This document shows positions 28,560-48,872 of a stretch of 48,872 bases of DNA, in pieces (position 1 is the stretch's first letter; each line of letters begins with the position of its first letter). The stretch is taken from positions 1 through 48,872 of the forward strand of contig NZ_BFBX01000005.1 of assembly GCF_003851045.1 (NCBI RefSeq). Direction: 5' to 3'. Made by a program: the position numbers and the translations under genes. Source of the stretch: Paenibacillus sp. 598K (GTDB taxonomy: Bacteria; Bacillota; Bacilli; Paenibacillales; Paenibacillaceae). The notes under the pieces were generated by a model. That model had not been told where the DNA came from, did no database searches, and was given only the letters and a program-made list of their open reading frames with translations.

Positions 28560-30116
28560 TTGAGCCCATCAGAAGTGTGGATACCTGTCGTGTTTTATTG
28601 GCTGCCAATGCTTATTTTCTTCTATATGGGATTGGATGTGTTGCTGCGCAATCCAAAAAAGCTGGAGCATATTTTGGTCAGCTTGACGATTTTGTGCTAT
28701 TTCCTGTTATTCCTTGAAGAATACATCCGCTATATGCTGCCGATCGAGTACAGTCCGGCGCTTGCGGCGCTATGGTTTGCCAATGTCGGTATCGCCATCC
28801 CGGGGCTAGGCTTTCATCTGCTTGCCAAGCTGATCGGGCTGGACAAGCGGCTGCCGCGTCCATGGTATCCTTACATTTTTCATGTGCTGCTGCTGGCGAT
28901 CCCGGCAAGCTTCCTTAGTCGCGGCGAGCTGATCTCGGCGCAGGAGTTCGTCGCGGTCGGCGTCTGGAAGTGGCCAGTGGCCAACGCGGCCTATTACGGC
29001 ACGCTTACGGCAAGCCTGTCGCTGAGCCTGATCTCGATCGTGCTGCTACGCATCGCCCGCAAGCGCAACAATCGATATGCTCTCAAGGAGCATAACGGGA
29101 TTTTCACTCTACTGGAGTATGGCAGCATCATTACGTTTAGTTGGGTCGTGCTCTTCGGTTATTTCCAGCTGGGCGAGTTCGTGCCGCCGTATCCATACCT
29201 GTATGCGGGATTGATCTGGTGTTTCGTGTTGCGTCTGGCGATGCAGCGATACGAGTTTCTTAATTATAATGGTCACCGTTATGAGAAGCTGTTCCAGATG
29301 AATCCGCAGCCGATCCTGCTGGTCGCCTCGACAGGTAAGATCAAGGAAGCCAATCCGAGCGCCCGGCAGTTGTTCTACCAAGTGGATCTAGTCTCCGCGA
29401 CACTTCACACGCTGGGCGGCGAGGCGTTGCATTACCAACTGCTGCAGCGGAAGGACATCCACGAGCAGGAGATGACGCTGCGCAATGGCGACCGCTCCAT
29501 CGAGGCGCTCGTCAGCGGAGATTATGTAACCGTTAACGATGAACCGCATGCGATCCTGATCGTCCATGATATTGGCGCGCGCAATGAATCGCTGCGACGA
29601 ATCGCGCACATGGCGTATCACGATCCGCTGACAGACCTGCCGAACCGCAGACAGTTCTACGACAAGCTGAATCATGCTATCGAGACGGCTGACGATCGCG
29701 AGCTAGCTGTCATGGTCATCGACCTCGACGACTTCAAGCGGGTCAACGACCGTTACGGTCATGAAGCGGGAGATCTCGTGCTGCGGCGCGTGGCGGCTAT
29801 CCTACGGGAGACGGTGGGCGAGGCGGGCACGGCGGCGCGCATCGGCGGCGATGAGTTCGTGCTCTTCTTCGTCCGGGCTCAGGGATGTCCTGAGGCCGAG
29901 GCTGTGATCGAACGGATCGAAGGCGCTGCGACATCTACGGTGCTGGAGTATGGCGGCGAGCGCCTGCAGATCCGCATGAGCATCGGCATGAGCCGCTACC
30001 CTGCCGACGGCGCGACCCCAGACGAGCTGCTCAAGCATGCCGACCATACGATGTATACCTTCAAGCAAGGCCGCAAGCGCGACGCTGCCGTGGCGGAGGA
30101 GCAGGAGCGGGCTTGA
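28560..30116 (+). CDS. Membrane sensor diguanylate cyclase (multi-TM N-terminus, PAS-like domain, GGDEF). TTG start.
   Basis: RQFYDKLNHA...VMVIDLDDFKRVNDRYGHEAGDLVLRRVA...ARIGGDEFVLFF is a GGDEF active site. Five to seven N-terminal TM helices. GGAGGAG RBS before the TTG. Confidence 0.8.
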   Translation: MSPSEVWIPVVFYWLPMLIFFYMGLDVLLRNPKKLEHILVSLTILCYFLLFLEEYIRYMLPIEYSPALAALWFANVGIAIPGLGFHLLAKLIGLDKRLPRPWYPYIFHVLLLAIPASFLSRGELISAQEFVAVGVWKWPVANAAYYGTLTASLSLSLISIVLLRIARKRNNRYALKEHNGIFTLLEYGSIITFSWVVLFGYFQLGEFVPPYPYLYAGLIWCFVLRLAMQRYEFLNYNGHRYEKLFQMNPQPILLVASTGKIKEANPSARQLFYQVDLVSATLHTLGGEALHYQLLQRKDIHEQEMTLRNGDRSIEALVSGDYVTVNDEPHAILIVHDIGARNESLRRIAHMAYHDPLTDLPNRRQFYDKLNHAIETADDRELAVMVIDLDDFKRVNDRYGHEAGDLVLRRVAAILRETVGEAGTAARIGGDEFVLFFVRAQGCPEAEAVIERIEGAATSTVLEYGGERLQIRMSIGMSRYPADGATPDELLKHADHTMYTFKQGRKRDAAVAEEQERA

Positions 30117-38154: not shown

Positions 38155-39132
38155 TCAGCTCAGCTTCGACCAGTCTCCGGCTTGCGGCAGATAGCGTTCC
38201 ATGATGCGGCGATGCTCTGCCAGCACAGCGGCGAGAGTCCCCGCGCTCAGGCTTCCTGCACCCGGGATCGAGGTGCGGAACCGCAGCTCTCCGTCCTCGG
38301 CGTCGAGCTCGAATGCGCCGCCGGGTCCGTCATAATTCAGATTCATCAGCTGCACGGCGACCGCTGCATGCGCGCTCGTCGGCACGAGCTCGGGGAAGAC
38401 GGAGTAGACGCTGCACCAGTCGCTCTCGCTTATATGGATCAGCATCCGCCAGCTCCCGATCTCGGTACGGATATCGAGCCGCACGACGTCCGAGGCGAAC
38501 ACCTCGTAGCGCAGGTTCAACTGTTGCAGCAGCCGCTCTAGCAGCATAGTCTGCGCCCCGCTGTAGCTGGCGACTCCCGATGTCTCGTCTCTTGCATCGT
38601 CCGGCTTCCGATGACCTGTGTGATCCTCAGGTTGCGCCGCGGCTTTCTCCGACTGGAGCCAGGCCGTCTGCAAGCCATGGCGGACGACGCCTTCGCTAGC
38701 CAAGGCGTCCGGCAATGGGATCTGCTGCATCAGCTCCAGCGCCAGCCAGCACTCCGACTGGCGGAGGAAGGTGTGCTCCGTCGCTCCCGGGAGCAGGGCC
38801 GCGAGGATGGTCTGGCTGTCTCCGCCGCTGCTGGCGATGCGCCGGGCATAGCTCTGGCGTAGCCTGGCGCGGATGACGACAGGCTCATCCAGATCGAAGC
38901 TCGGCTCGGCATTCACCAGATCGGTGAACAGGTGGAACCGCTCGTCGGCGATCCATGCTTCGACCAGGTGTCCCTCAGCCTCAAAGGTAATCTCGCACCG
39001 GACGGCGGTTCTGTGATCAGCCGCCTCCCAGACTAGCCGGGTCAGCTCTACCGGCAATGCTTCGCCCTCGAGCGACAAGAAGCTTAAGGGATAGCGGGTT
39101 CGGATTGCATTAGCGTCTTCGCGTGCGGGCAT
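38155..39132 (-). CDS. Hypothetical protein (~325 aa), possibly a tandem YbjN-like/chaperone-like fold (very tentative)
   Basis: ATG 39132 follows GGAGAGGAGAGG. The track start at 39138 is a TTG two codons upstream. No diagnostic motif. Confidence 0.5.
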   Translation of the reverse strand: MPAREDANAIRTRYPLSFLSLEGEALPVELTRLVWEAADHRTAVRCEITFEAEGHLVEAWIADERFHLFTDLVNAEPSFDLDEPVVIRARLRQSYARRIASSGGDSQTILAALLPGATEHTFLRQSECWLALELMQQIPLPDALASEGVVRHGLQTAWLQSEKAAAQPEDHTGHRKPDDARDETSGVASYSGAQTMLLERLLQQLNLRYEVFASDVVRLDIRTEIGSWRMLIHISESDWCSVYSVFPELVPTSAHAAVAVQLMNLNYDGPGGAFELDAEDGELRFRTSIPGAGSLSAGTLAAVLAEHRRIMERYLPQAGDWSKLS

Positions 39133-39459
39133 TCGCAACCTCTCCTCTCCGATGTTCTCTCATTGCAAGCCACTGTTGGCTTTCGATCACCCCAACATCA
39201 GCCTGATCCGCCTATTGGCGTATTATACCTGTTTCGTACCTGTTTCGTACCATACCGTTTGGGCGCTTCTCCGTAATGCAGTGCGGGTGCATCGACATTA
39301 GGCGGACTTTGCACATGTGGAGCGTGTGCGGTTGGTAGGGCGTATTGTTACTAGTAGTTGTCCTGGACTGCGCAAGATGTCAGCATCCGCTCAAAGCATT
39401 CGATGTGTAGAGAGTCAAGTCGGCGCCAGTCGCTGTTGTAGCGGAGGGACAGAAACGTA

Positions 39460-39660: not shown

Positions 39661-39741
39661 TGTAGCGGAAACGATGCGTCGAATCGCCAGAGTAGGGGAG
39701 GAGCCGCAGCGCTGGACCCACCGCTTCCGTACCCCCATCGC

Positions 39742-40040
39742 CCGCGCACCCGTCAGCCATGCGACGGCTCTCGTCAGCGTGGCGCGGCGCCCCGCGAAGC
39801 CGCAGTTCGCACCCACGGTGCCAGAGCGCCCCCTAGGCGTCCGCGCACCCGTCAGCCGTGCGACGGCTCTCGTCAGCGTGGCGCAGCGCCCCGCGAAGCC
39901 GCAGTCCGCGCCCACGGTGCCAGAGCGCCCCCATCGTCCGGCGCACCCGTCAGCCGTGCGACGGCTCTCGTCAGCATGGCGCAGCGCCCCGCGGAGCCGT
40001 AGACCGCGCCCACAATGCCAGAGCGCCCCCTGTGCGTCCG
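39742..40040. repeat. 3 tandem copies of a ~99-bp GC-rich unit
   Basis: CGCGCACCCGTCAGCCrTGCGACGGCTCTCGTCAGCGTGGCGCrGCGCCCCGCGAAGCCGCAGTyCGCrCCCACGGTGCCAGAGCGCCCCC... with periods of 99, 99 and 98 nt. The ORFs 39620..40057(+) and 39610..39915(-) are artefacts. Confidence 0.85.
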
Positions 40041-40107: not shown

Positions 40108-42948
40108 CTAGGTCTTCTCGATGCCGACGAGCCCGCCCTTGAGGCCGTAAGCGCCGTTTTCCTTGCTGAGGGCCAGCTTGCCGAGGCGCTTCGATTTCTC
40201 GATGGCGAGCGTCATGATGCCCGCTTCGATCTCAAGCCCCTTCGTCTGGCCGATCTCCAGCGACACCTCCCATTTGCTGAACTTGCCAGCGTCGTCCTTC
40301 TCTGCGCTAATATTGAGGGAGAAGTCCATCGTGCTGCTCAACGCAATCTTGTTGGACAGCTCGTCTGCGTCCAGCTCCTCGCTCGTGAACCAGCTGCGCA
40401 TCTGCTCCTGGATCTCGTCCTGATCCTGCAACTGCGAGGCGAAGCTCTCGCCCCAGGCGTCGAACTCCGGCACCAGGAAGAGCGTATCCGTCCCGATATC
40501 CGCAGCGGTGCCGGCATAGCTGGCGCCTTTTTTGTCCTTCATCGTATTCTGGACCGCGCCGACAGAGTTTTTCACAAGGCCGGAGATCGGCGCGACCAGC
40601 TTGGCCAGCGTCTTCGCCCATTCCGTCGTTTCCTCGCCGTACTGGAAGGGGAGGCCGGCCTCGACGGCGATCTCGACCTCCTTGAGCGTGCCGTCCATCC
40701 AGGCGAGCTCCAGCGCGATCCCGAAGTCGACGCCGGTGCCGGCGATCTCCAGCGACAGCGCGCTCTCGAACTCGAGGGTGCGGCGTTTGGAGCCGGAGAG
40801 CAAGGCGGTCGCCTTCTCGGCCAGCTTGGCCAGATCGGTCGAGTCGCCGAATGACCCGGCTTTATCCGTCACAGCGTCCTTGTCGTAGCGATTGAGCCGC
40901 TTGTGGCCGAGCGCCGCCTCCGCTTCGAACACACCCGCATTAACCTCGGCGGCGACTTGGCTGGTCAAGCCGACGTCGACGTGATTGTCCTCGTTGCTCA
41001 TCTCCTGTTGCTCGATCATCGCCGCCCACAGCTCGGCCTCCTCGAGCTTGCTCTTACCGGACTTGCCGCCATGGCCCCACAGCGAGTCGGCCGCTCCTGC
41101 GGAGAACTTGCGCATCTGTCGATACATCCCGTACGACATCAGGTTGACGGCGCTGTGCGAGTTGCTGCCCTGCGCTGCGAGGAAAAATCCGACCGACGCG
41201 TTCACGTCGAGACCAAAGCCGCCGAAGCCGCCGCCGATGCTCACTTGCGATTCCAGCGACAGCTCGCCTTCCTCCTTTTCCGCCTCCGCGCCGAGCGAGA
41301 TCAGGAAGTACGCGCCCGCCTGGATCGGAATCTTCAGCTCGAACTCGAGCGAGGCCGAATCGCCAGCCGCAGGCACGGCCAGATCGATGATTTTGGCGAC
41401 CTTGGCGAAGCCTTTGTTGAGCGAGTCTTCCTCGATCACATATTTGATCGCCTTGCCGGCGATATCGTCGGCCGTCACCTGCTGGCCGACCTGGGTGATC
41501 AGCTCGGAGCGCTTGATCAGATCCGGTCCGGCGCCCGTTTCCTTGTCGCCCTTCGTCACCTTGCGCGCTTCCGATTCGGCTTTTGGCATGATGATTTTGT
41601 AGAGCTCGGCCGCCTTGGCCTGCGCCCCGGTTTTGGAGGCTTTGGCGATCTTGTCTCCGGCGTCGGCATGACTTCTCGCTACGCTGTAGGCTGACGTCTG
41701 CGCCGCTTCCTTAAGCTGCTTGGTCGTCGGCTCCTGCGGCAGCAGCTGCGTGAGGATGCTGTCCGCGTGCGTGCCCATCACTTTGTCGACCGAGCTCTTG
41801 GAGGTGCTATGCGATTCAGCCTTGGCCAGCATGCCATAGTATTGCTTTCCTACGTTGCTCTTGCCGCTGGTGAGGCTGTTGCTGTCCAGTTGATTGTCGA
41901 TGTCGGTCCGGGCCTGCGTGCGTCCGGCTTCCTTGAGACTGTCGCGGAAGGCGTTGAGCTCGTCCGACCTGCGGAAGGCGCTGCGCCCGACGCCAAGCTT
42001 GAGCAGCACGACCTGACGGATCGGGTCGGCCAGACTGGCTTTATAGACCTGATCGATGACCGTGGCGTCGAACAGACTGTTCTCCAGTCGGCTTCGCTTG
42101 CCCGCTTCATCTGTTCCCAGCGTCTTGATATCGACATGGACGGAGAGGGCGCCGAGATCGTTTTGCATATCCTGCAGGATCGATTGCTTGCCGGCAGTCA
42201 GCGTCGCCTCGCCGATCTGCCGGGCTTCGCCGACCGTTTGCTTTTCGGCGCTTTTATCCGCTTCCTTGAGCTGCTTGCTCAGCTCGACGCCGGGCTTTGG
42301 AGCGACCATGGCGAAGCCTTCCTTGGCTTTGGTTTGCAGCTTTTCCTTTTGCGTATCGCCGAGCCTGGGAGTTGCGGTGCTCCCCGCATATTTTTTGAGC
42401 GTTTCGCCGAGTACATTTTGCGAGTCGACGAGTTGCTCCGCATACGACTTGGCATCCTTTTTTTGCTGGTCAGTGACGCTGCCTGTATTCTCCACTTGCT
42501 GTTGGACGGCACTAATGGCCGCTTGTCGCAAGCTGTTGCGTAACGCCGCCGTCTGCTTGTCCTTGGCTAGGAAAGTCGTCAGCTCGGTGGCTGTCGTACT
42601 TTGGAGCCCGGTGAAATACTTGTCGGCGAGCCGATTGGCGGTCGCATCCTTCTGCAGGTCAAGCTCGCCTTGCCGGATCTCCTCCTTGGACGGACCGCTC
42701 GGAGGCGGCGATCCGCTTCCGCTGGACTGCTGGCTGCGCGCGAGGTTGCGATTGCCGAGCGAGCGCTGCAGCGTGTTGCGCAGATCAAGAGGGGTGGGAG
42801 ATTGCGTGCCCTGAACGGGCGGCGATGTCGGGGTCTGCGTTGCAGTCTGCTGGGGAGCTTGCGTTTGGGTCTGCGTTTGCGCGGCAGTCTGTCGGTCTTG
42901 ATCGGAGGGTTTCTTTTTGCCGGTAAAGAGGGACGGGAAGGGAGCCAT
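40108..42948 (-). CDS. Large hypothetical protein (946 aa). It has a low-complexity Q/T/P-rich N-terminus, the leader motif TLQRSLGNRNLAR, and a Lys/Ala/Glu-rich body with a Gly-rich segment (GGGFGGFGLDVNASVGFFLAAQG).
   Basis: ATG 42948 (MAPFPSLFTGKKKP). No signal peptide or TM helix. It shares the leader motif with the divergent gene at 43180. Candidate injection-system cargo (inference). Confidence 0.6.
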   Translation of the reverse strand: MAPFPSLFTGKKKPSDQDRQTAAQTQTQTQAPQQTATQTPTSPPVQGTQSPTPLDLRNTLQRSLGNRNLARSQQSSGSGSPPPSGPSKEEIRQGELDLQKDATANRLADKYFTGLQSTTATELTTFLAKDKQTAALRNSLRQAAISAVQQQVENTGSVTDQQKKDAKSYAEQLVDSQNVLGETLKKYAGSTATPRLGDTQKEKLQTKAKEGFAMVAPKPGVELSKQLKEADKSAEKQTVGEARQIGEATLTAGKQSILQDMQNDLGALSVHVDIKTLGTDEAGKRSRLENSLFDATVIDQVYKASLADPIRQVVLLKLGVGRSAFRRSDELNAFRDSLKEAGRTQARTDIDNQLDSNSLTSGKSNVGKQYYGMLAKAESHSTSKSSVDKVMGTHADSILTQLLPQEPTTKQLKEAAQTSAYSVARSHADAGDKIAKASKTGAQAKAAELYKIIMPKAESEARKVTKGDKETGAGPDLIKRSELITQVGQQVTADDIAGKAIKYVIEEDSLNKGFAKVAKIIDLAVPAAGDSASLEFELKIPIQAGAYFLISLGAEAEKEEGELSLESQVSIGGGFGGFGLDVNASVGFFLAAQGSNSHSAVNLMSYGMYRQMRKFSAGAADSLWGHGGKSGKSKLEEAELWAAMIEQQEMSNEDNHVDVGLTSQVAAEVNAGVFEAEAALGHKRLNRYDKDAVTDKAGSFGDSTDLAKLAEKATALLSGSKRRTLEFESALSLEIAGTGVDFGIALELAWMDGTLKEVEIAVEAGLPFQYGEETTEWAKTLAKLVAPISGLVKNSVGAVQNTMKDKKGASYAGTAADIGTDTLFLVPEFDAWGESFASQLQDQDEIQEQMRSWFTSEELDADELSNKIALSSTMDFSLNISAEKDDAGKFSKWEVSLEIGQTKGLEIEAGIMTLAIEKSKRLGKLALSKENGAYGLKGGLVGIEKT

Positions 42949-43179
42949 GCACTGTCCTCCTTAAAGAGAGTATCGAATGTTAGAATCTGATCTGATTATA
43001 CATGACGCTTTCTTCCCTGTGTGACATTTTTTTGCGTGTGTCGCAATCGTTCGACATTTTTTTTATACATTTTGCAGGTAAAAGGGAGGAAGGTGTAGAA
43101 ATAAACAAAATTCCAGTATTTGAATCGGAACAGAGTGAAAGCAGCGGCGGGTCGAGGGCTGCAACGGGGAGGGCGAGGA
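42949..43179. promoter_or_regulatory. AT-rich divergent promoter region with the direct repeat GACATTTTTTT x2
   Basis: The 230-bp gap between divergent genes has the lowest GC content in the window. Repeats at 43021 and 43053. Confidence 0.4.
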
Positions 43180-44595
43180 ATGGCACGTAAATATGGCAAG
43201 CTGCCTCCGCTTGACTCGCATCCCGAGAAGCTGGACGAGGAGAAGACGCGACGTCCGGCGGCCAACCGCGAAGCGCCGCCGCTGGAGGAAGGGTCTCAGA
43301 CGCTGCAGCGATCGGTCGGCAACTCGGCGATCCGTCGGCTCGCCCGGACGGTAGCTGTCTCCGGCTCCGGCCCGCTGCTGCCCCGCGAGCCCAAGTATGC
43401 GCGATATGCCCGCTGGCTGCTGGCGCATGTAGAGGCGGACGGACGCCAGGAGCTGCTGCGCCGCTTTTACGCGCTGACGATGCCGCAGAAGCGGGCCGCC
43501 CTGGTCAATACAGTCGGCCGTCCGGCGCTGCAGAGCGAGCAGTACACGCTGGATCTGGACGACTTCGACCGCCAGGTAACCGCTGTCAAGCATGTACAGC
43601 TGCGACATGGCGAGTCGGAGAAGGAAGCGGACGAAAGCGAGCGGGGAGCGTTCCAGACGAAGGCAAGCCTCACCCCGGCCGGTCTGCTGCACCCGTACCG
43701 CGAACTCCTGTTGTGGCTCAACTACAAGGCCGTCAAGCAGGGCCAGGCCGCGCTGATGCTGCGGTTTGGCCGGCTGTCCGTCCCCCGCAAGCAGCTCGCG
43801 TTGCATCGGATGATGCGATTCCGCAGTATCACTGTCGATGCCTTCACCCGTCAGATGACGCTGCCGGTACTCGAGCGCGAGTGGGTCGACTGGGAGACGG
43901 TACGCGCGTCGATGGCGATGGCGGAGCGCGTGAAGGCCGAGGGCGGCCGGAGCGAGGCTGAAACTGGCGGAGAGCGCACAGACGGCGGAGATACAGCAGC
44001 CGACGAGCTGCTGGAGGGACTAGACGCCGGAGGACTGCCGACTGCGCTGCTATCGCTACTGGGGCTTGCGGACTCGGACGCCGGGACTGTAGGGATGGAC
44101 GATCGCAAGGGCGCTCGCGCCTCGGAGGAGCCTGCGACGGGTCAGGCTCAGGAGCGCCAGCCGTCGCCCGGAGCATCCAGGTCGGAGGCGATCAAGCCAG
44201 ACGCAGGCGGGGTGGCGCTGCTCGCCGGCAGGACCGCGGACTACTGGACGAGGCTGCTGCTAGGCGGCAAGGGCGCGCAGCCGCTCGCCGCCATCGCCGA
44301 GCGCTGTCGCAGCGGCGGCTTGGACAGGGAGGCAGTCGTCGACCGCTATCTCAACCTCGCGACCGCTCCTCCGGCAGGGCGGCGCAAGCAGCGCGACAAG
44401 CGGTTGCAGGCGTCGGGCTTCCGGACGGCGGCGGATTGCTTCGCCTTCCTCATCAGGGGCTTCGCCGCCTTCCTGATCCGGGGAGCGAAGGAGGGCAAGG
44501 ACAAGAGCTGCCGTCAGGCGCTCAAGCAATGGGACATCCCGGATGGCGCCGACGAGACGAAGGCGCAGGCGGCGATACTTGCAAGGCTCGGCTAG
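43180..44595 (+). CDS. Hypothetical protein (471 aa) with the N-terminal leader motif TLQRSVGNSAIRRLA. The C-terminal domain is Arg/Ala-rich and matches no known family.
   Basis: ATG 43180 lies 6 nt after GGGGAGGG. The motif sits at residues 41-55. The track start at GTG 43120 lacks an RBS. Confidence 0.55.
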   Translation: MARKYGKLPPLDSHPEKLDEEKTRRPAANREAPPLEEGSQTLQRSVGNSAIRRLARTVAVSGSGPLLPREPKYARYARWLLAHVEADGRQELLRRFYALTMPQKRAALVNTVGRPALQSEQYTLDLDDFDRQVTAVKHVQLRHGESEKEADESERGAFQTKASLTPAGLLHPYRELLLWLNYKAVKQGQAALMLRFGRLSVPRKQLALHRMMRFRSITVDAFTRQMTLPVLEREWVDWETVRASMAMAERVKAEGGRSEAETGGERTDGGDTAADELLEGLDAGGLPTALLSLLGLADSDAGTVGMDDRKGARASEEPATGQAQERQPSPGASRSEAIKPDAGGVALLAGRTADYWTRLLLGGKGAQPLAAIAERCRSGGLDREAVVDRYLNLATAPPAGRRKQRDKRLQASGFRTAADCFAFLIRGFAAFLIRGAKEGKDKSCRQALKQWDIPDGADETKAQAAILARLG

Positions 44596-44609
44596 CGGAT
44601 CGGCTAGGC

Positions 44610-47600
44610 GTGAATCTAGAGGCAGGATGGAGCGGCAGCGTGGCAGCACAATTACAGGCTTTTTTTAATCTCAGATACGAAGACCGCCGCAAAATCCTCG
44701 TCATGGGCCTTGTGTTCCTGCTGGCAGGCATCTCGGAGATGGTCAACTATACCGCTTATATGGGCATCTTCAACAGCAGGGTAGGCACGCAGTATTTGCC
44801 GATCATGTACATGATCGAGGCGCTTTTGCTGCCGCTCGAGGGCTGGGCGCTCGCCTATCTGTCGCAGCGCATCCCCAAGAAGCGCCTGATGATTACGCTC
44901 TACCTGTCCTTCGTCTCGATCGGTCTGATCGGCGGAGCGCTGCTGCTCCTCTTCCGCTGGACCGGCGCGGAGTGGACGTTCTTCTATTTCTTGCTGTTCC
45001 TGGGCTCCAGCTTTGTCGTCCGGCAGCAGACGCTGCTCATGTGGGCCACCGCCTTTGATCTGTGCCCGACCCAGCAGGCGAAGCGGGTCATGCCCGTCTT
45101 CGTGCTGCTGGCGATCATCGGCGGCATCGTCGCCGGCGTGCTCTCCCGGTTGCTGGCGCCGCTGCTCGGCGCAGAGCTGCTGTACCTGCTCGGGGCGATT
45201 ATCCTGTTGCTCGGCTTCCCTAACTTCCGCAGCGCGCTTCGCCAGTATTTGCTGCCCTCGGATATCGCGGACGAGGAGGGGGGAGAGGAGCTGGGCGCGG
45301 TCGGCCGTTCGATGAAGCTGATGCTGAGATCGCCCTTCCTGCTGGTCGTGCTCGGAGTGATGACCTTGATGCCGGCTGTGTATTATGTGATGGAATATCA
45401 ATACTTTACAGCCGCTCAGGCCGTGTTCCTCACGGAGGAGGAGTTGACAGCGTTCTATGGGCTGATGGTCATTGTGCTGTTTTGCGGCGCATTCGTCCTG
45501 CAGCTGTTCTCCGCGAGGCTGATGGCCTGGCTGGGCGCCAGCAACATGGTGCTCGGCATGACGGTCGTATTTCTCCTCTGCTTTGCGCTGGCGGCCCCGC
45601 TGGTGGGCTCATCCGGAGCGCTGTTCGCCGTATCGTTTGGCTATTGCCTCACCTATCTCCTTCTTTATTATTTCGCAGAACCAAGCTTTCAGCTGTTTTT
45701 CAAAATGTATCCCCAGCAGCAGCGGGACGGGCTGCGATTCACCGCCCAGAGCGTGTCGGCCTCGGCCGGCATCCTGCTCGGCTCCGGCGTCTCCCTGCTG
45801 CACTCCCGATTGGGCTGGAGTCTACCGGCCCAGGCGACGGTCGGACTGGCGATGGCAGCGCTGCTCGTCGCGCTAGCCTGGTCAATCCGCCGACTGTATA
45901 TGCAGCAGCTGTTGCATTACCTGCACGCGGCCGGAGGTTCGCTCAAGAACCGGTATCAGGACTTCGTCGAGTCGCTGCGCAGTCAGGATGCGAAGCGGGC
46001 GCTGATCGCCCGACTGGAGCAATCTGAGCCGCCGATCCAACGGATCACGCTGGAATGGCTGGCCGAAGCGCCGGACGCGGCCGCCTCAGAGGCGCTGCTG
46101 CGGTTCGCCGGGCGCCATCAGGGCGACGTATTGGCCATGGCGCTGACAGCGATCCATGCCGACGGCTGGCGCGAGATGGCGGCAGGCCGCGTCCGCGAGT
46201 GGGTGCAGGATGCGAGCGAGACGGTGCGGGCAGTCGCAGCGCGTCAGGCGATCGCCTCCGGGCGTCCGGACCGCGCGGAGTGGCTGCAGCTCGCATATCG
46301 CGATCCGGCGCTGCCGGTGCGACTGGAGGCGCTGCGCGTCTGGGAGAGCCAGGAGGAGGTGGAGCGGGAGCTGCGCGAGCTGCTGCAGCAAGGCGGCGAA
46401 GCGGCGCTCGCAGCTTGCCGGATGATCGGCGAGCGACGGCTCGCCTCGATGCTCTACGATGTCATGCTATGCATGCTGGAGCCTGCGATGGCGCTCAAGT
46501 ACGAGGCAGTGCGGACGATCGGCCGGATCGGCGACAGCGACATCGTCACCAGTCTGATGGACATGCTCGTCGGCGCGGATCGCGAGATGAGCCGGATCAT
46601 CGAGGAGGCGCTGCAGGAGGCGGGTGAGGTAACGGGCCTGACGCGCTTCCTTGACTCGCCCAATGAAGACATCTGGCGCGCCGCCGTCTTGACGGTCAAT
46701 GCGATCGGCGCCGATCGGGAGATCGCCGAGCTGGTCGTCCCGGCCTGTATCCGCAAGCTGATGGAGCTGTGCGCGGGCAACCGTATACTCGAGCTGATCG
46801 AGGAGGCGGGCCAGCCGGCGTGGACGGAGCTGGCGCGGCAGCGGCGCAACGAGGTGAACCGGATGCTGCTCGACACGATCTGGACCGTCATGGTCCGCTA
46901 CGGCGACGAGCGCTCGATCCCGCAGCTGCGGCGCGCGATCGAGGAGGGCGCCGAGGAGGCGCGCGACCACGGGCTGGAGATCCTCTCCGAGGGGATGGAT
47001 CACCCCCGCCTGGCGGGTGCGCTGCTCCTCTACTATCAGAGCATTCAGCACGGCGCCGCCAAGCGGACGGAGACGCACGCAGCGATCGAGAGCAGTCCCG
47101 AGCTTGCGGCGACGATGCCGACAGATCCATGGCTGCAGGCGATTCTCGTCAAGGCGAGCGCCAGGGAAGGAGAGGCGGAGTTGGCACAGACCTGGGAATA
47201 TTTGAGCGCGCTCGACAAAATCGTATTTCTGAAGCAAGTCCCGTTGTTCCACGAAATCTCGGTCGAGGAGCTCGGGCGCATCGCAAGCATCGCCGAGGAG
47301 CAGTCGTACGCGGAGGGCGAGTACCTGCTGCGTCAGGGCGAGCGCAGCAGCTCGCTCGTCATGATCGTCGACGGCGAGGTCGAGATGAGCGGGGTGGGCG
47401 ATGCCGGCGTAGAGGGCAGCCTGGCGAGACTGGGGCCGAAGATGACGTTTGGCGAGGCGGGACTGTTCGATGACCAGCCCTCGGCGGTCTCGGCGCAGGC
47501 GGTCCTGGGCGAGGTGCGGGTGCTGGCGATCGCGGGCGAGGAAGCGGCCAAGCTGGTGCGGCTCTATCCCGATATCGGCGTTGGTCTGCTCCGCTCCGTC

Positions 47601-47648
47601 AGCCAGCGCCTGCGCAGTCTGGAGCGGATGCTGCTGAAGCTGAGCTAG
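44610..47648 (+). CDS. Fusion protein: TLC-family (ATP/ADP-translocase-like, Npt) 12-TM transporter, HEAT-repeat region and C-terminal cyclic-nucleotide-binding (CAP-type) domain
   Basis: N-terminus FFNLRYEDRRKILVMGLVFLLAGISEMVNYTAYMG plus WATAFDLCPTQQAKRVMPVF match the TLC motifs FNYSILRD and FANEIT..EAKRFYP. Residues ~560-900 are HEAT-like (EALLRFAGRHQGDVLAMALTAIHADG...). The cNMP-binding domain reads FLKQVPLFHEISVEELGRIASIAEEQSYAEGEYLLRQGERSSSLVMIVDGEVEM...FGEAGLFDDQP. The start is uncertain: GTG 44610 or 44640, or ATG 44703. Confidence 0.75.
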   Translation: MNLEAGWSGSVAAQLQAFFNLRYEDRRKILVMGLVFLLAGISEMVNYTAYMGIFNSRVGTQYLPIMYMIEALLLPLEGWALAYLSQRIPKKRLMITLYLSFVSIGLIGGALLLLFRWTGAEWTFFYFLLFLGSSFVVRQQTLLMWATAFDLCPTQQAKRVMPVFVLLAIIGGIVAGVLSRLLAPLLGAELLYLLGAIILLLGFPNFRSALRQYLLPSDIADEEGGEELGAVGRSMKLMLRSPFLLVVLGVMTLMPAVYYVMEYQYFTAAQAVFLTEEELTAFYGLMVIVLFCGAFVLQLFSARLMAWLGASNMVLGMTVVFLLCFALAAPLVGSSGALFAVSFGYCLTYLLLYYFAEPSFQLFFKMYPQQQRDGLRFTAQSVSASAGILLGSGVSLLHSRLGWSLPAQATVGLAMAALLVALAWSIRRLYMQQLLHYLHAAGGSLKNRYQDFVESLRSQDAKRALIARLEQSEPPIQRITLEWLAEAPDAAASEALLRFAGRHQGDVLAMALTAIHADGWREMAAGRVREWVQDASETVRAVAARQAIASGRPDRAEWLQLAYRDPALPVRLEALRVWESQEEVERELRELLQQGGEAALAACRMIGERRLASMLYDVMLCMLEPAMALKYEAVRTIGRIGDSDIVTSLMDMLVGADREMSRIIEEALQEAGEVTGLTRFLDSPNEDIWRAAVLTVNAIGADREIAELVVPACIRKLMELCAGNRILELIEEAGQPAWTELARQRRNEVNRMLLDTIWTVMVRYGDERSIPQLRRAIEEGAEEARDHGLEILSEGMDHPRLAGALLLYYQSIQHGAAKRTETHAAIESSPELAATMPTDPWLQAILVKASAREGEAELAQTWEYLSALDKIVFLKQVPLFHEISVEELGRIASIAEEQSYAEGEYLLRQGERSSSLVMIVDGEVEMSGVGDAGVEGSLARLGPKMTFGEAGLFDDQPSAVSAQAVLGEVRVLAIAGEEAAKLVRLYPDIGVGLLRSVSQRLRSLERMLLKLS

Positions 47649-47922
47649 AGCTTGTGCAGCCTGTGGGCGCAGGAACAGGCGGGACAAAAAAATATGTGAC
47701 ATAGCTATACTCACGAATGAGGAGTATGCCGATAACCGTAGTGTACTCTCTCTCACGGGATCTCTCTCGCTTCAAAATGTCGAATGATGTCCCGATTTTT
47801 ACTGTTGAGGGGCCTTTGTCCTACGACTGTCCTGCCCAAAGAACGATCCCGTGACCGTAGGCATAGTTTTGAGGGCAGCCTGATGTATCGGGATCATCTG
47901 AATTCGGGAGAGTGAACTTGGA

Positions 47923-48872
47923 ATGACTTATACGCAAGAAGCTTCTCCTTATCAGAATGGGGCGGAGTATCTGTTCGATGAGTGGGTCCGGCTCGATGTC
48001 GTGCTGGAGATCGAGATGCAGCGGATGATGCAGGGCGCGCAAGAGCTGGATCAAGATAGCGGCGCATTCCGCGGCATGTATCTGTCCGATGCCGAGGCCA
48101 AAGCGCTCCTCGACGAGGACGAGCCGTACCTGCAGCTGACAACGGAGCAGGCCTATCTGCTGGACCAGCTCGAGGCGCGCATCCGGCATAATCTGGCTGC
48201 GACCTCCGGGGAGCGGCTGCCGCTGCTGCGTCTGCAGCAGGCGCTCGGGCTGAACGAGCAGGAGATACGGCTGCTGCTGGCAGCGCTTGCGCCCCATGCC
48301 AATCGCAAATACATACGATTATACGGATATCTGCAAGACGACATGTCCAGCCAGCATCTGTCGCTCGATCTGGCGCTGCGCATCACCAGCCGCAGTCCGG
48401 TAGAGCGAAGGGAACTGCTGAAGCGCTGGACGGATGACCACGGCTCGCTCCGCTCGCTGTTTGCGGATGGATCGGCAGCACATGCCCGCAAGGACGTATC
48501 GATGCTGACGGCGCCGCTCACGCTGAGGCCGCGCGTCGTCCACCTCCTGCTGGACCTGCCGTGGCGAGCGCGGGACACGCTCCGCGGACTGGCTCACTAC
48601 ACGCTGGACAGTCATCGCCAGCTGGAGCAGCCGCTCATCCAGACCGAGCTGCGCCGACGTCTGTCGGACTACGCGCGCGAGCGGGCAGCGTACCCCGTGC
48701 ACTGGAACCTGCACGGTCCCACAGGCAGCGGCAAGACGTTCCAGGCCAGACATCTGTGCGCCGACCTCGGCCTGGGGCTGCTGGAATGGGAGCTCGGTCA
48801 GGCTGCGCAGGAGCCGGAGGCGCTGCGCGGCGAGCTGGCGCAGCTGCTGCTCGAGGCGCGGCTGCAGGAGGC
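47923..48872 (+). CDS. AAA+ ATPase, 5' part (runs off the window). The N-terminal domain resembles the Afp15/Pvc15-type ATPase of extracellular contractile injection systems.
   Basis: GMYLSDAEAKALLDEDEPY and LGLNEQEIRLLLAALAPHANRKYIRLYGYLQDDMSSQHLSLDLALRI match the conserved N-domain pattern recalled for CIS ATPases (GL.ISDAEVD.LL and LLLaLAPELD.RYERLYGYLqDDvTRR.pTVgLALEL). Walker A reads NLHGPTGSGKT. GGGAGAG RBS. Confidence 0.65.
   Translation, partial: MTYTQEASPYQNGAEYLFDEWVRLDVVLEIEMQRMMQGAQELDQDSGAFRGMYLSDAEAKALLDEDEPYLQLTTEQAYLLDQLEARIRHNLAATSGERLPLLRLQQALGLNEQEIRLLLAALAPHANRKYIRLYGYLQDDMSSQHLSLDLALRITSRSPVERRELLKRWTDDHGSLRSLFADGSAAHARKDVSMLTAPLTLRPRVVHLLLDLPWRARDTLRGLAHYTLDSHRQLEQPLIQTELRRRLSDYARERAAYPVHWNLHGPTGSGKTFQARHLCADLGLGLLEWELGQAAQEPEALRGELAQLLLEARLQE

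Follow-up and report, generated by a model that had tools for sequence, protein, structure and literature searches.

A nucleotide transporter-like HEAT fusion protein with a degenerate cyclic nucleotide-binding pocket is a conserved accessory of injection-system loci in Paenibacillaceae

What does a large transporter-like membrane protein do beside the genes of a contractile injection system (CIS)? The question is raised by a 48,872-nt stretch of Paenibacillus sp. 598K (contig NZ_BFBX01000005.1, positions 1–48,872 of the forward strand; hereafter the window), where a single gene, our target, encodes a nucleotide transporter (NTT)-like membrane domain, a HEAT-repeat arm and a cyclic nucleotide-binding (CNB)-like domain in one chain (Table 1). 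The Paenibacillaceae clade to which this protein belongs is a fixed accessory gene of CIS and extracellular CIS (eCIS) loci. What is new is this gene context: a CIS-embedded clade with a degenerate nucleotide pocket and a partner-switching cassette. From the context we infer, with roughly even confidence, that the protein works within the membrane as a sensor or transducer and so controls the injection system.

The linkage is seen in 80 species-level Paenibacillaceae loci, each taken with 10-kb flanks, in which all open reading frames (ORFs) were clustered and the cluster representatives annotated. The target homologues fall into clade A (at least 42% identity; 18 loci, L001–L017 and L080, with L084 not counted) and clade B (33–40% identity; 62 loci). 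A CIS marker lies within 10 kb of the homologue in 74 of the 80 loci, or in 66 if DUF4280 is left out. The clade A genes are followed by those for a winged-helix domain (WHD)–AAA protein, Pvc16_N, the sheath and two tube proteins in all 17 loci with enough flank. For clade B, DUF4280, Tail_P2_I or PF13699 eCIS_core occurs within 10 kb in 57 of 62 loci. Directly before the homologue, 57 loci encode a HAMP/Guanylate_cyc protein and a GNAT protein; further upstream lie DUF4280 (PAAR-like) and a MORN protein (54 loci), with Tail_P2_I at the edge of the flank in 18. Downstream are PF13699 eCIS_core proteins (32 loci) and more proteins bearing the leader motif described below (17 loci). The clade A and clade B layouts are combined in L080.

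Linkage to an injection locus had been set beforehand as a test of the sequence-only reading of this DNA, and the 74 loci leave that reading standing. They also bear on the idea of a housekeeping membrane protein, unrelated to the CIS locus that it neighbours by chance. The wider family does occur in many phyla and unrelated contexts, and elsewhere the window encodes ordinary sugar metabolism; however, markers within 10 kb in that proportion of species-level genomes, in two clades only 33–40% identical to each other and with differing gene orders, make a chance neighbour, already disfavoured, highly improbable. Six gene neighbourhoods looked up elsewhere in the fusion family (from Syntrophomonas, Pelotomaculum, Chloroflexi and metagenomes) contain no CIS genes, so the linkage is specific to the Paenibacillaceae branch. 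We found nothing in the literature that ties CIS loci to cyclic nucleotide domains or to partner switching.

The second element of the context is a partner-switching module. The target homologue is followed in all 18 clade A loci by genes for a HATPase_c_2 protein (~150 aa), a STAS protein (~115 aa) and a GAF–SpoIIE PP2C phosphatase (~450 aa). The HATPase_c_2/STAS pair is found downstream in 35 of the 62 clade B loci and the PP2C in 40, which brings the pair to 53 of 80 loci overall and the GAF–SpoIIE protein to 58 of 80. The module begins ~18 nt past the stop codon, and the STAS protein keeps its phosphorylatable serine, in the sequence EYVSSAGL. All three components of RsbU/RsbV/RsbW-type modules (a SpoIIE-family PP2C, a STAS antagonist and a HATPase_c_2 kinase) are encoded directly downstream of the target homologues in the relatives. 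Paenibacillus daejeonensis DSM 15491 (L001) and P. thalictri (L080) are examples of strains that carry the whole cassette. A related arrangement occurs in a metagenomic contig of Syntrophomonas wolfei that has no CIS genes: a 492-aa HATPase_c_2 (RsbW-like)–GNAT fusion (L085:8470–9948) is encoded directly upstream of an NTT–HEAT–CNB homologue. This hints that the transporter-like family was linked with an RsbW-like kinase and a GNAT before it became associated with CIS.

The HAMP/Guanylate_cyc protein of clade B (L024:6671–9439 and 57 other loci; ORF cluster 4) is encoded two genes upstream of the target homologue and has a big N-terminal extracytoplasmic region between two transmembrane segments. 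We considered it as a source of cyclic nucleoside monophosphate (cNMP) and rejected it. In 58 of 58 copies the first metal-binding Asp is replaced by Asn (FNIRGF), the second by Ala (GAG for GDG) and the transition-state Arg by Met, Ala, Val or Glu; with these residues replaced, the protein is no usual cNMP source. The relatives' cassette combines a GAF domain, an NTT-like domain and two degenerate nucleotide-signalling folds, and has the appearance of a sensing device related to nucleotides.

The target is a real gene. It has 191 full-length homologues, and its dN/dS relative to L084, which is 97% identical, is ~0.07, indicating strong purifying selection (membrane domain 0.056, HEAT arm 0.085, C-terminal domain 0.056). 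The longest ORF that spans it runs from 44436 to 47648 (+). Read from GTG 44610, the product has 1012 residues and starts 14 nt past the stop of the upstream ORF at 44595, as the sequence-only reading had it. The true start is probably GTG 44640, a minor correction favoured because the closest relatives are 1002–1003 residues long and because GGAG stands 7 nt upstream of this codon; the product then has 1002 residues and the gap to the upstream gene is 44 nt, not 14.

The three-domain architecture described from the sequence is borne out by Pfam, profile searches and structure prediction. The AlphaFold model of the membrane domain (pLDDT 85, pTM 0.83) contains twelve helices in a 6+6 arrangement. 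When it was compared with the Protein Data Bank (PDB) using Foldseek, the top three matches were the Chlamydia pneumoniae nucleotide transporter NTT1 (9j3n) and the chloroplast ADP/ATP carrier AtNTT1 (9j3l and 9j3m), with TM-scores of 0.77–0.79; the next major facilitator superfamily (MFS) transporters score 0.62–0.65. A profile of the N-terminal 450 residues, built from 15 relatives, has AtNTT1 (9j3j, E = 3.2e-4) as its sole significant match among 177,635 PDB sequences, and that search returned no other MFS transporter. The alignment places LLWSTAFDLCPTQQAKRLMP on LFWGFANQITTVDEAKKFYP, so that QQAKRVMP of the target pairs with DEAKKFYP of AtNTT1 across the AKR/AKK motif. Outside the fusion family, an index of 5.8 billion proteins yielded three remote matches, all three with PF03219, and hhalign aligned the domain with one of them, a stand-alone 463-aa PF03219 protein, over 360 columns at 96.9% probability.

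Pfam gives a less clear view. Its only indication for this domain of the target is a sub-threshold match to MFS_1 (20.7 bits against a cut-off of 33.4), and among 26 close relatives PF03219 is detected in 5 (best E = 2e-6) and MFS_1 in 20. The claim of a TLC-like N-terminal domain therefore holds at the level of profiles but not at that of the Pfam PF03219 model, and the profile searches, which pick out AtNTT1 and PF03219 proteins, place the domain with TLC rather than with generic MFS transporters. We read it as an MFS fold of TLC/NTT sequence ancestry that has diverged too far for the Pfam TLC definition. The TLC/NTT translocases (PF03219, TC 2.A.12; AtNTT1, 9j3j–9j3m; C. pneumoniae NTT1, 9j3n/9j3o) have the 12-helix MFS-type fold that is predicted for the target, and the AK[KR] motif is conserved in the matching helix of AtNTT1. 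The target differs from them in sequence (14–17% identity, below the PF03219 threshold), in its 560-residue cytoplasmic extension and in its host, a free-living spore-former, whereas NTT hosts are obligate intracellular organisms or plastids.

Could the target simply be a working nucleotide transporter, for ATP/ADP, NAD or another substrate, with its rate tuned by the HEAT/CNB tail? This was proposed for the whole family by Major et al., who suggested that cAMP may tune ATP uptake in fusions of this type (PMC5381601). The NTT-type sequence signature and fold agree with it, as do the many helix residues that are charged or polar and invariant (R138, D150, K158, R159, E262, E357, K365, R372, D373 and R376) and the strong purifying selection on the membrane domain. 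Its place in CIS loci would then reflect a benefit of nucleotide import or export, either to assembly or loading by the AAA+ ATPase or to survival once kin have lysed. However, Paenibacillus is free-living and metabolically complete, with no obvious need to import ATP; similarity to characterised NTTs is weak and PF03219 is not matched; the cNMP pocket is degenerate; and the tight coupling to kinase, STAS and phosphatase genes and to a dead cyclase resembles signalling, not nutrition. We therefore consider a transporter unlikely.

The MFS topology suggests that the HEAT arm is cytoplasmic. The target's HEAT_2 match (E = 8e-8) exceeds the curated Pfam cut-off, and HEAT_2 is present in 26 of 26 relatives. 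In the full-length AlphaFold2 (AF2) model (pLDDT 82) a solenoid spans residues ~445–850 and is followed by a β-roll with C-terminal helices (residues 895–1011). HEAT solenoids are protein-binding scaffolds, and the gene is fixed in the locus beside baseplate or ATPase genes. Both facts would suit a membrane adaptor whose HEAT arm is a docking surface that brings cytoplasmic CIS particles to the cell membrane and which licenses firing, a function like that of CisA. This Streptomyces coelicolor membrane protein is encoded in the CIS locus but is no component of the particle, and it may serve as a sensor or checkpoint; it shows that a Gram-positive CIS can require such a protein (PMC12237407), and the target resembles it in being a protein of this kind. 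There is no homology between the two: CisA is bitopic with a periplasmic solute-binding-like domain, whereas the polytopic target has large HEAT and CNB-like domains in the cytoplasm. The fusion family is also common in bacteria without CIS. Moreover, one Paenibacillus eCIS points to an extracellular mode, since the receptor-binding part of its candidate tail fibre directed injection into human cells when engineered into a PVC particle (PMC12923769). An adaptor of this kind seems to us quite unlikely.

The C-terminal domain has a CAP-type fold. PF00027 cNMP_binding matches residues 898–983 (E = 4e-14; 52.7 bits against a cut-off of 27.5), and the model shows the expected β-roll (strands in 895–975) and C-helix (helices in 976–1011). 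We found 96 relatives of this domain in the PDB. NCBIfam gave only CRP/FtrB-like matches for the target, confined to this domain and far under their cut-offs. The phosphate-binding cassette is only partly preserved. FGEAGLFDDQP-S-A-V of the target aligns with IGELSLFDPGP-R-T-A (2pqq) and FGEMSLLDEGE-R-S-A (4ev0); the Gly-Glu pair is kept, but Ser (S958) stands where the solved domains have the Arg that binds the cyclic phosphate, and Ala-Val takes the place of Ser/Thr-Ala. The cNMP-binding core that had been taken as retained is thus retained in its Gly-Glu and lost in its arginine. Ser occupies the Arg position in 78 of 80 Paenibacillaceae proteins, and the Glu of the cassette is also lost in ~22 of the 80. 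Because the arginine is gone, classical cAMP or cGMP gating of the Paenibacillaceae clade is doubtful. The idea of nucleotide transport gated by a cyclic nucleotide is not supported, in view of this substitution and of the loss of both metal-binding Asp residues and the catalytic Arg from the relatives' neighbouring cyclase. Apart from the arginine and the assignment to TLC at the Pfam level, what the sequence-only reading observed about the target is essentially right; its interpretation is borne out in part.

Fusions of NTT and HEAT domains, with or without a CNB domain (cNBD), are widespread and include proteins from Chlamydia, cyanobacteria and oomycetes. Major, Embley and Williams (2017, Genome Biol Evol) described a monophyletic, widely distributed NTT–HEAT clade with NTT–HEAT–cNBD variants, no member of which had been characterised experimentally and for none of which transport had been shown (PMC5381601). 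We considered whether the fusion itself is new, as the sequence-only reading had implied, and rejected this, as it has been described since 2017 and is widespread. The N-terminal profile retrieved 4166 cluster representatives (E <= 1e-3) among 1.84 billion, the top 150 of which are mostly 900–1100 residues long, and the best remote matches are all fusion proteins. Among 48 remote members sampled at 18–41% identity, HEAT_2 is found in 48, cNMP_binding in 46, TLC PF03219 in 23 and MFS_1 in 24. Named members come from Syntrophomonas, Pelotomaculum, Chloroflexi, Gemmatimonadota, Zixibacteria, Acidobacteria and others, and relatives are labelled in databases as 'Npt1/Npt2 family nucleotide transporter', 'AAA family ATP:ADP antiporter' or 'ADP,ATP carrier protein'.

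Judged by its sequence, the target is a member of this NTT–HEAT–cNBD family (PMC5381601), with which it shares the three domains, their order and the motif W..A..QAKRxxP. Unlike the Bacilli sequences in that study, which have a duplicated cNBD, it has one. The Paenibacillaceae clade departs from other members of the family at the cNMP-binding Arg, which is present in 40 and missing from 8 of the 48 remote members. It is also embedded in CIS loci with partner-switching genes; neither this embedding nor the degenerate Arg was reported in the earlier study.

How might such a protein control an injection system? In our proposal the 12-helix domain, descended from TLC/NTT transporters, would bind, and perhaps move, a nucleotide-like ligand at the membrane, and its state would be relayed by the HEAT arm and the CNB-like domain to cytoplasmic partners, which in most relatives may be the RsbW-like kinase, the phosphorylatable STAS protein and the GAF–PP2C phosphatase encoded immediately downstream. 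In the lineage of the window, which lacks the module, the target presumably acts directly or via partners encoded elsewhere. The controlled output would be production, loading or firing of the injection machine. As with the sensory or regulatory role itself, we infer the class of ligand, the direction of signalling and this output. A more specific form of the proposal, which we put forward at low confidence, is that the NTT-derived domain has turned into a 'transceptor', a receptor that responds to a nucleotide-like signal such as ATP or a different nucleotide from damaged kin or prey, and that it licenses CIS assembly, cargo loading or firing via the HEAT arm, a re-purposed CNB fold, the dead cyclase-like partner and an RsbW/RsbV/RsbU-type phospho-switch.

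Several observations weigh against a sensory role. The partner-switching genes are absent next to the target in both the window and L084, and the cyclase-like gene and GNAT are also missing from the window, so the argument from context is borrowed from relatives. Unlike in RsbU/RsbV/RsbW-type systems, no sigma factor is encoded nearby, and no obvious output protein was seen in the loci. PF03219 TLC does not match the target protein at E <= 1 in Pfam, so its gathering score is not reached, and the many invariant charged residues of the membrane domain fit real transport just as well as sensing. The supplement of Geller et al. (2021) shows no overall enrichment of cNMP_binding in eCIS operons, from which it follows that the link to CIS is lineage-specific. 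Finally, the role is read from gene context alone, because no NTT–HEAT member has been studied experimentally (PMC5381601).

The missing module has an economical explanation. By blastn, the 275-nt spacer that replaces it in the window has no more than a weak match of 59 nt, to sequence immediately before the ATPase gene of L001. Since all 18 clade A loci have the module, including relatives at 81–83% identity, its loss is most economically read as a lineage-specific deletion common to the window and L084. The target has remained under purifying selection after this loss, and therefore its function is not strictly dependent on an adjacent module. A promoter and terminator scan around the target found no terminator in the spacer, with counts near the expectation from shuffled sequence.

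The immediate neighbours of the target are as the sequence-only reading had placed them: a co-directional leader-motif gene upstream (with QTLQRSVGN) and, 275 nt downstream, the start of a CIS-like ATPase gene (WHD PF22977 and the beginning of an AAA domain). The full-length orthologue of this ATPase contains WHD and AAA domains, and Pvc16_N, sheath and tube genes come after its gene. The motif [LIMV]QRx[hydrophobic]GNx[AS] occurs in 43 ORFs of L001–L080, always within the first 120 residues, and in none of the shuffled sequences. It is common to proteins without Pfam matches and to PF13699 eCIS_core (formerly DUF4157) proteins, and from its distribution in these sequences the N-terminal LQR..GN motif looks like a leader or packaging signature shared by the cargo proteins that these loci encode. 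Homologues of the 491-aa ORF keep the same position in 11–13 clade A loci.

The motif scan finds no LQRxxGN leader in the target, in agreement with the claim that it lacks TLQRS, and for this reason we do not regard the protein as cargo. Together with the adjacent RsbW/RsbV/RsbU-like genes of the relatives, this favours the regulatory function that had been suggested over a cargo function. The other suggestion, immunity or self-protection against the neighbouring leader-bearing proteins, would account for the place of the gene immediately behind a leader-motif gene on the same strand, as seen in the window and in 11–13 relatives. We found no evidence in support of it. In clade B the upstream neighbours are GNAT and the cyclase-like protein, not cargo; the target is conserved while adjoining cargo-like genes vary; and no family of this architecture is known as an immunity protein. 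For the target and its neighbours, PADLOC returned only weak CNB-domain matches to the Pycsar effector PycTIR and no membership of a defence system. An immunity role is thus very unlikely indeed.

Table 1. Positions of the target gene, its domains and neighbouring features in the window
Feature	Position	Strand	Basis or remark
Target gene, NTT-like/HEAT/CNB-like fusion	44610..47648	+	ORF list, Pfam, homologues, dN/dS, AF2 model
12-helix (6+6) MFS-fold domain, TLC/NTT-like, residues 1–450	44610..45959	+	Motif W..A..CPTQQAKRxMP conserved
HEAT/α-solenoid arm, residues ~445–850	45942..47159	+	HEAT_2 above threshold; ~25 short model helices
CAP-type CNB-like domain, degenerate phosphate-binding cassette (FGEAGLFDDQPSAVSAQA; Arg to Ser)	47187..47648	+	PF00027, CNB alignments
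YbjN/CesT-like protein, possible cargo chaperone	38155..39138	-	PF10722, E = 8e-8; kept in 11 clade A loci
946-aa protein without Pfam match, N-terminal NTLQRSLGN, candidate cargo	40108..42948	-	Homologues in 11 clade A loci
491-aa ORF without Pfam match, N-terminal QTLQRSVGN, candidate CIS cargo or accessory	43120..44595	+	Motif at window position 43303 (+)
Spacer, 275 nt	47649..47922	.	Site of the 2.3-kb partner-switching module in 18 clade A loci
WHD + AAA+ ATPase, N-terminal part, Afp15/Pvc15 position, runs off the window	47923..48872	+	PF22977, E = 2e-28

The remainder of the window is less closely connected with the target. Genes for YbjN/CesT-like proteins stand beside those for leader-bearing proteins in both clades (in clade B, for example, at L039:18501–19022), and these proteins are possibly dedicated cargo chaperones. 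Between the YbjN-like gene of the window and the 3′ end of the 946-aa gene is a 900-nt spacer containing a tandem repeat with a 99-bp unit (39732–40030; 3.1 copies, 91% match). As 99 is a multiple of 3, the repeat could represent coding sequence, either remnant or repetitive; the equivalent spacer of L084 is ~240 nt long. Positions 1–37000 hold ordinary sugar-utilisation genes, among which a PAS + GGDEF diguanylate cyclase gene (28560–30116, +) lies ~14 kb upstream, with no link seen to the CIS end of the window.

To our knowledge, the known regulators of CIS are a few transcription factors and CisA in Streptomyces. A clade locked into CIS loci with partner-switching genes, in culturable Paenibacillus and Cohnella, offers a genetically testable setting for both CIS control and the function of NTT–HEAT proteins. 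The annotations 'cyclic nucleotide-binding' and 'adenylate cyclase' in these loci should not be taken at face value, because both domains are degenerate. If the transceptor reading is true, the target and its relatives would give eCIS-type machines their first defined pathway of sensory input, and the widespread NTT–HEAT family its first function.

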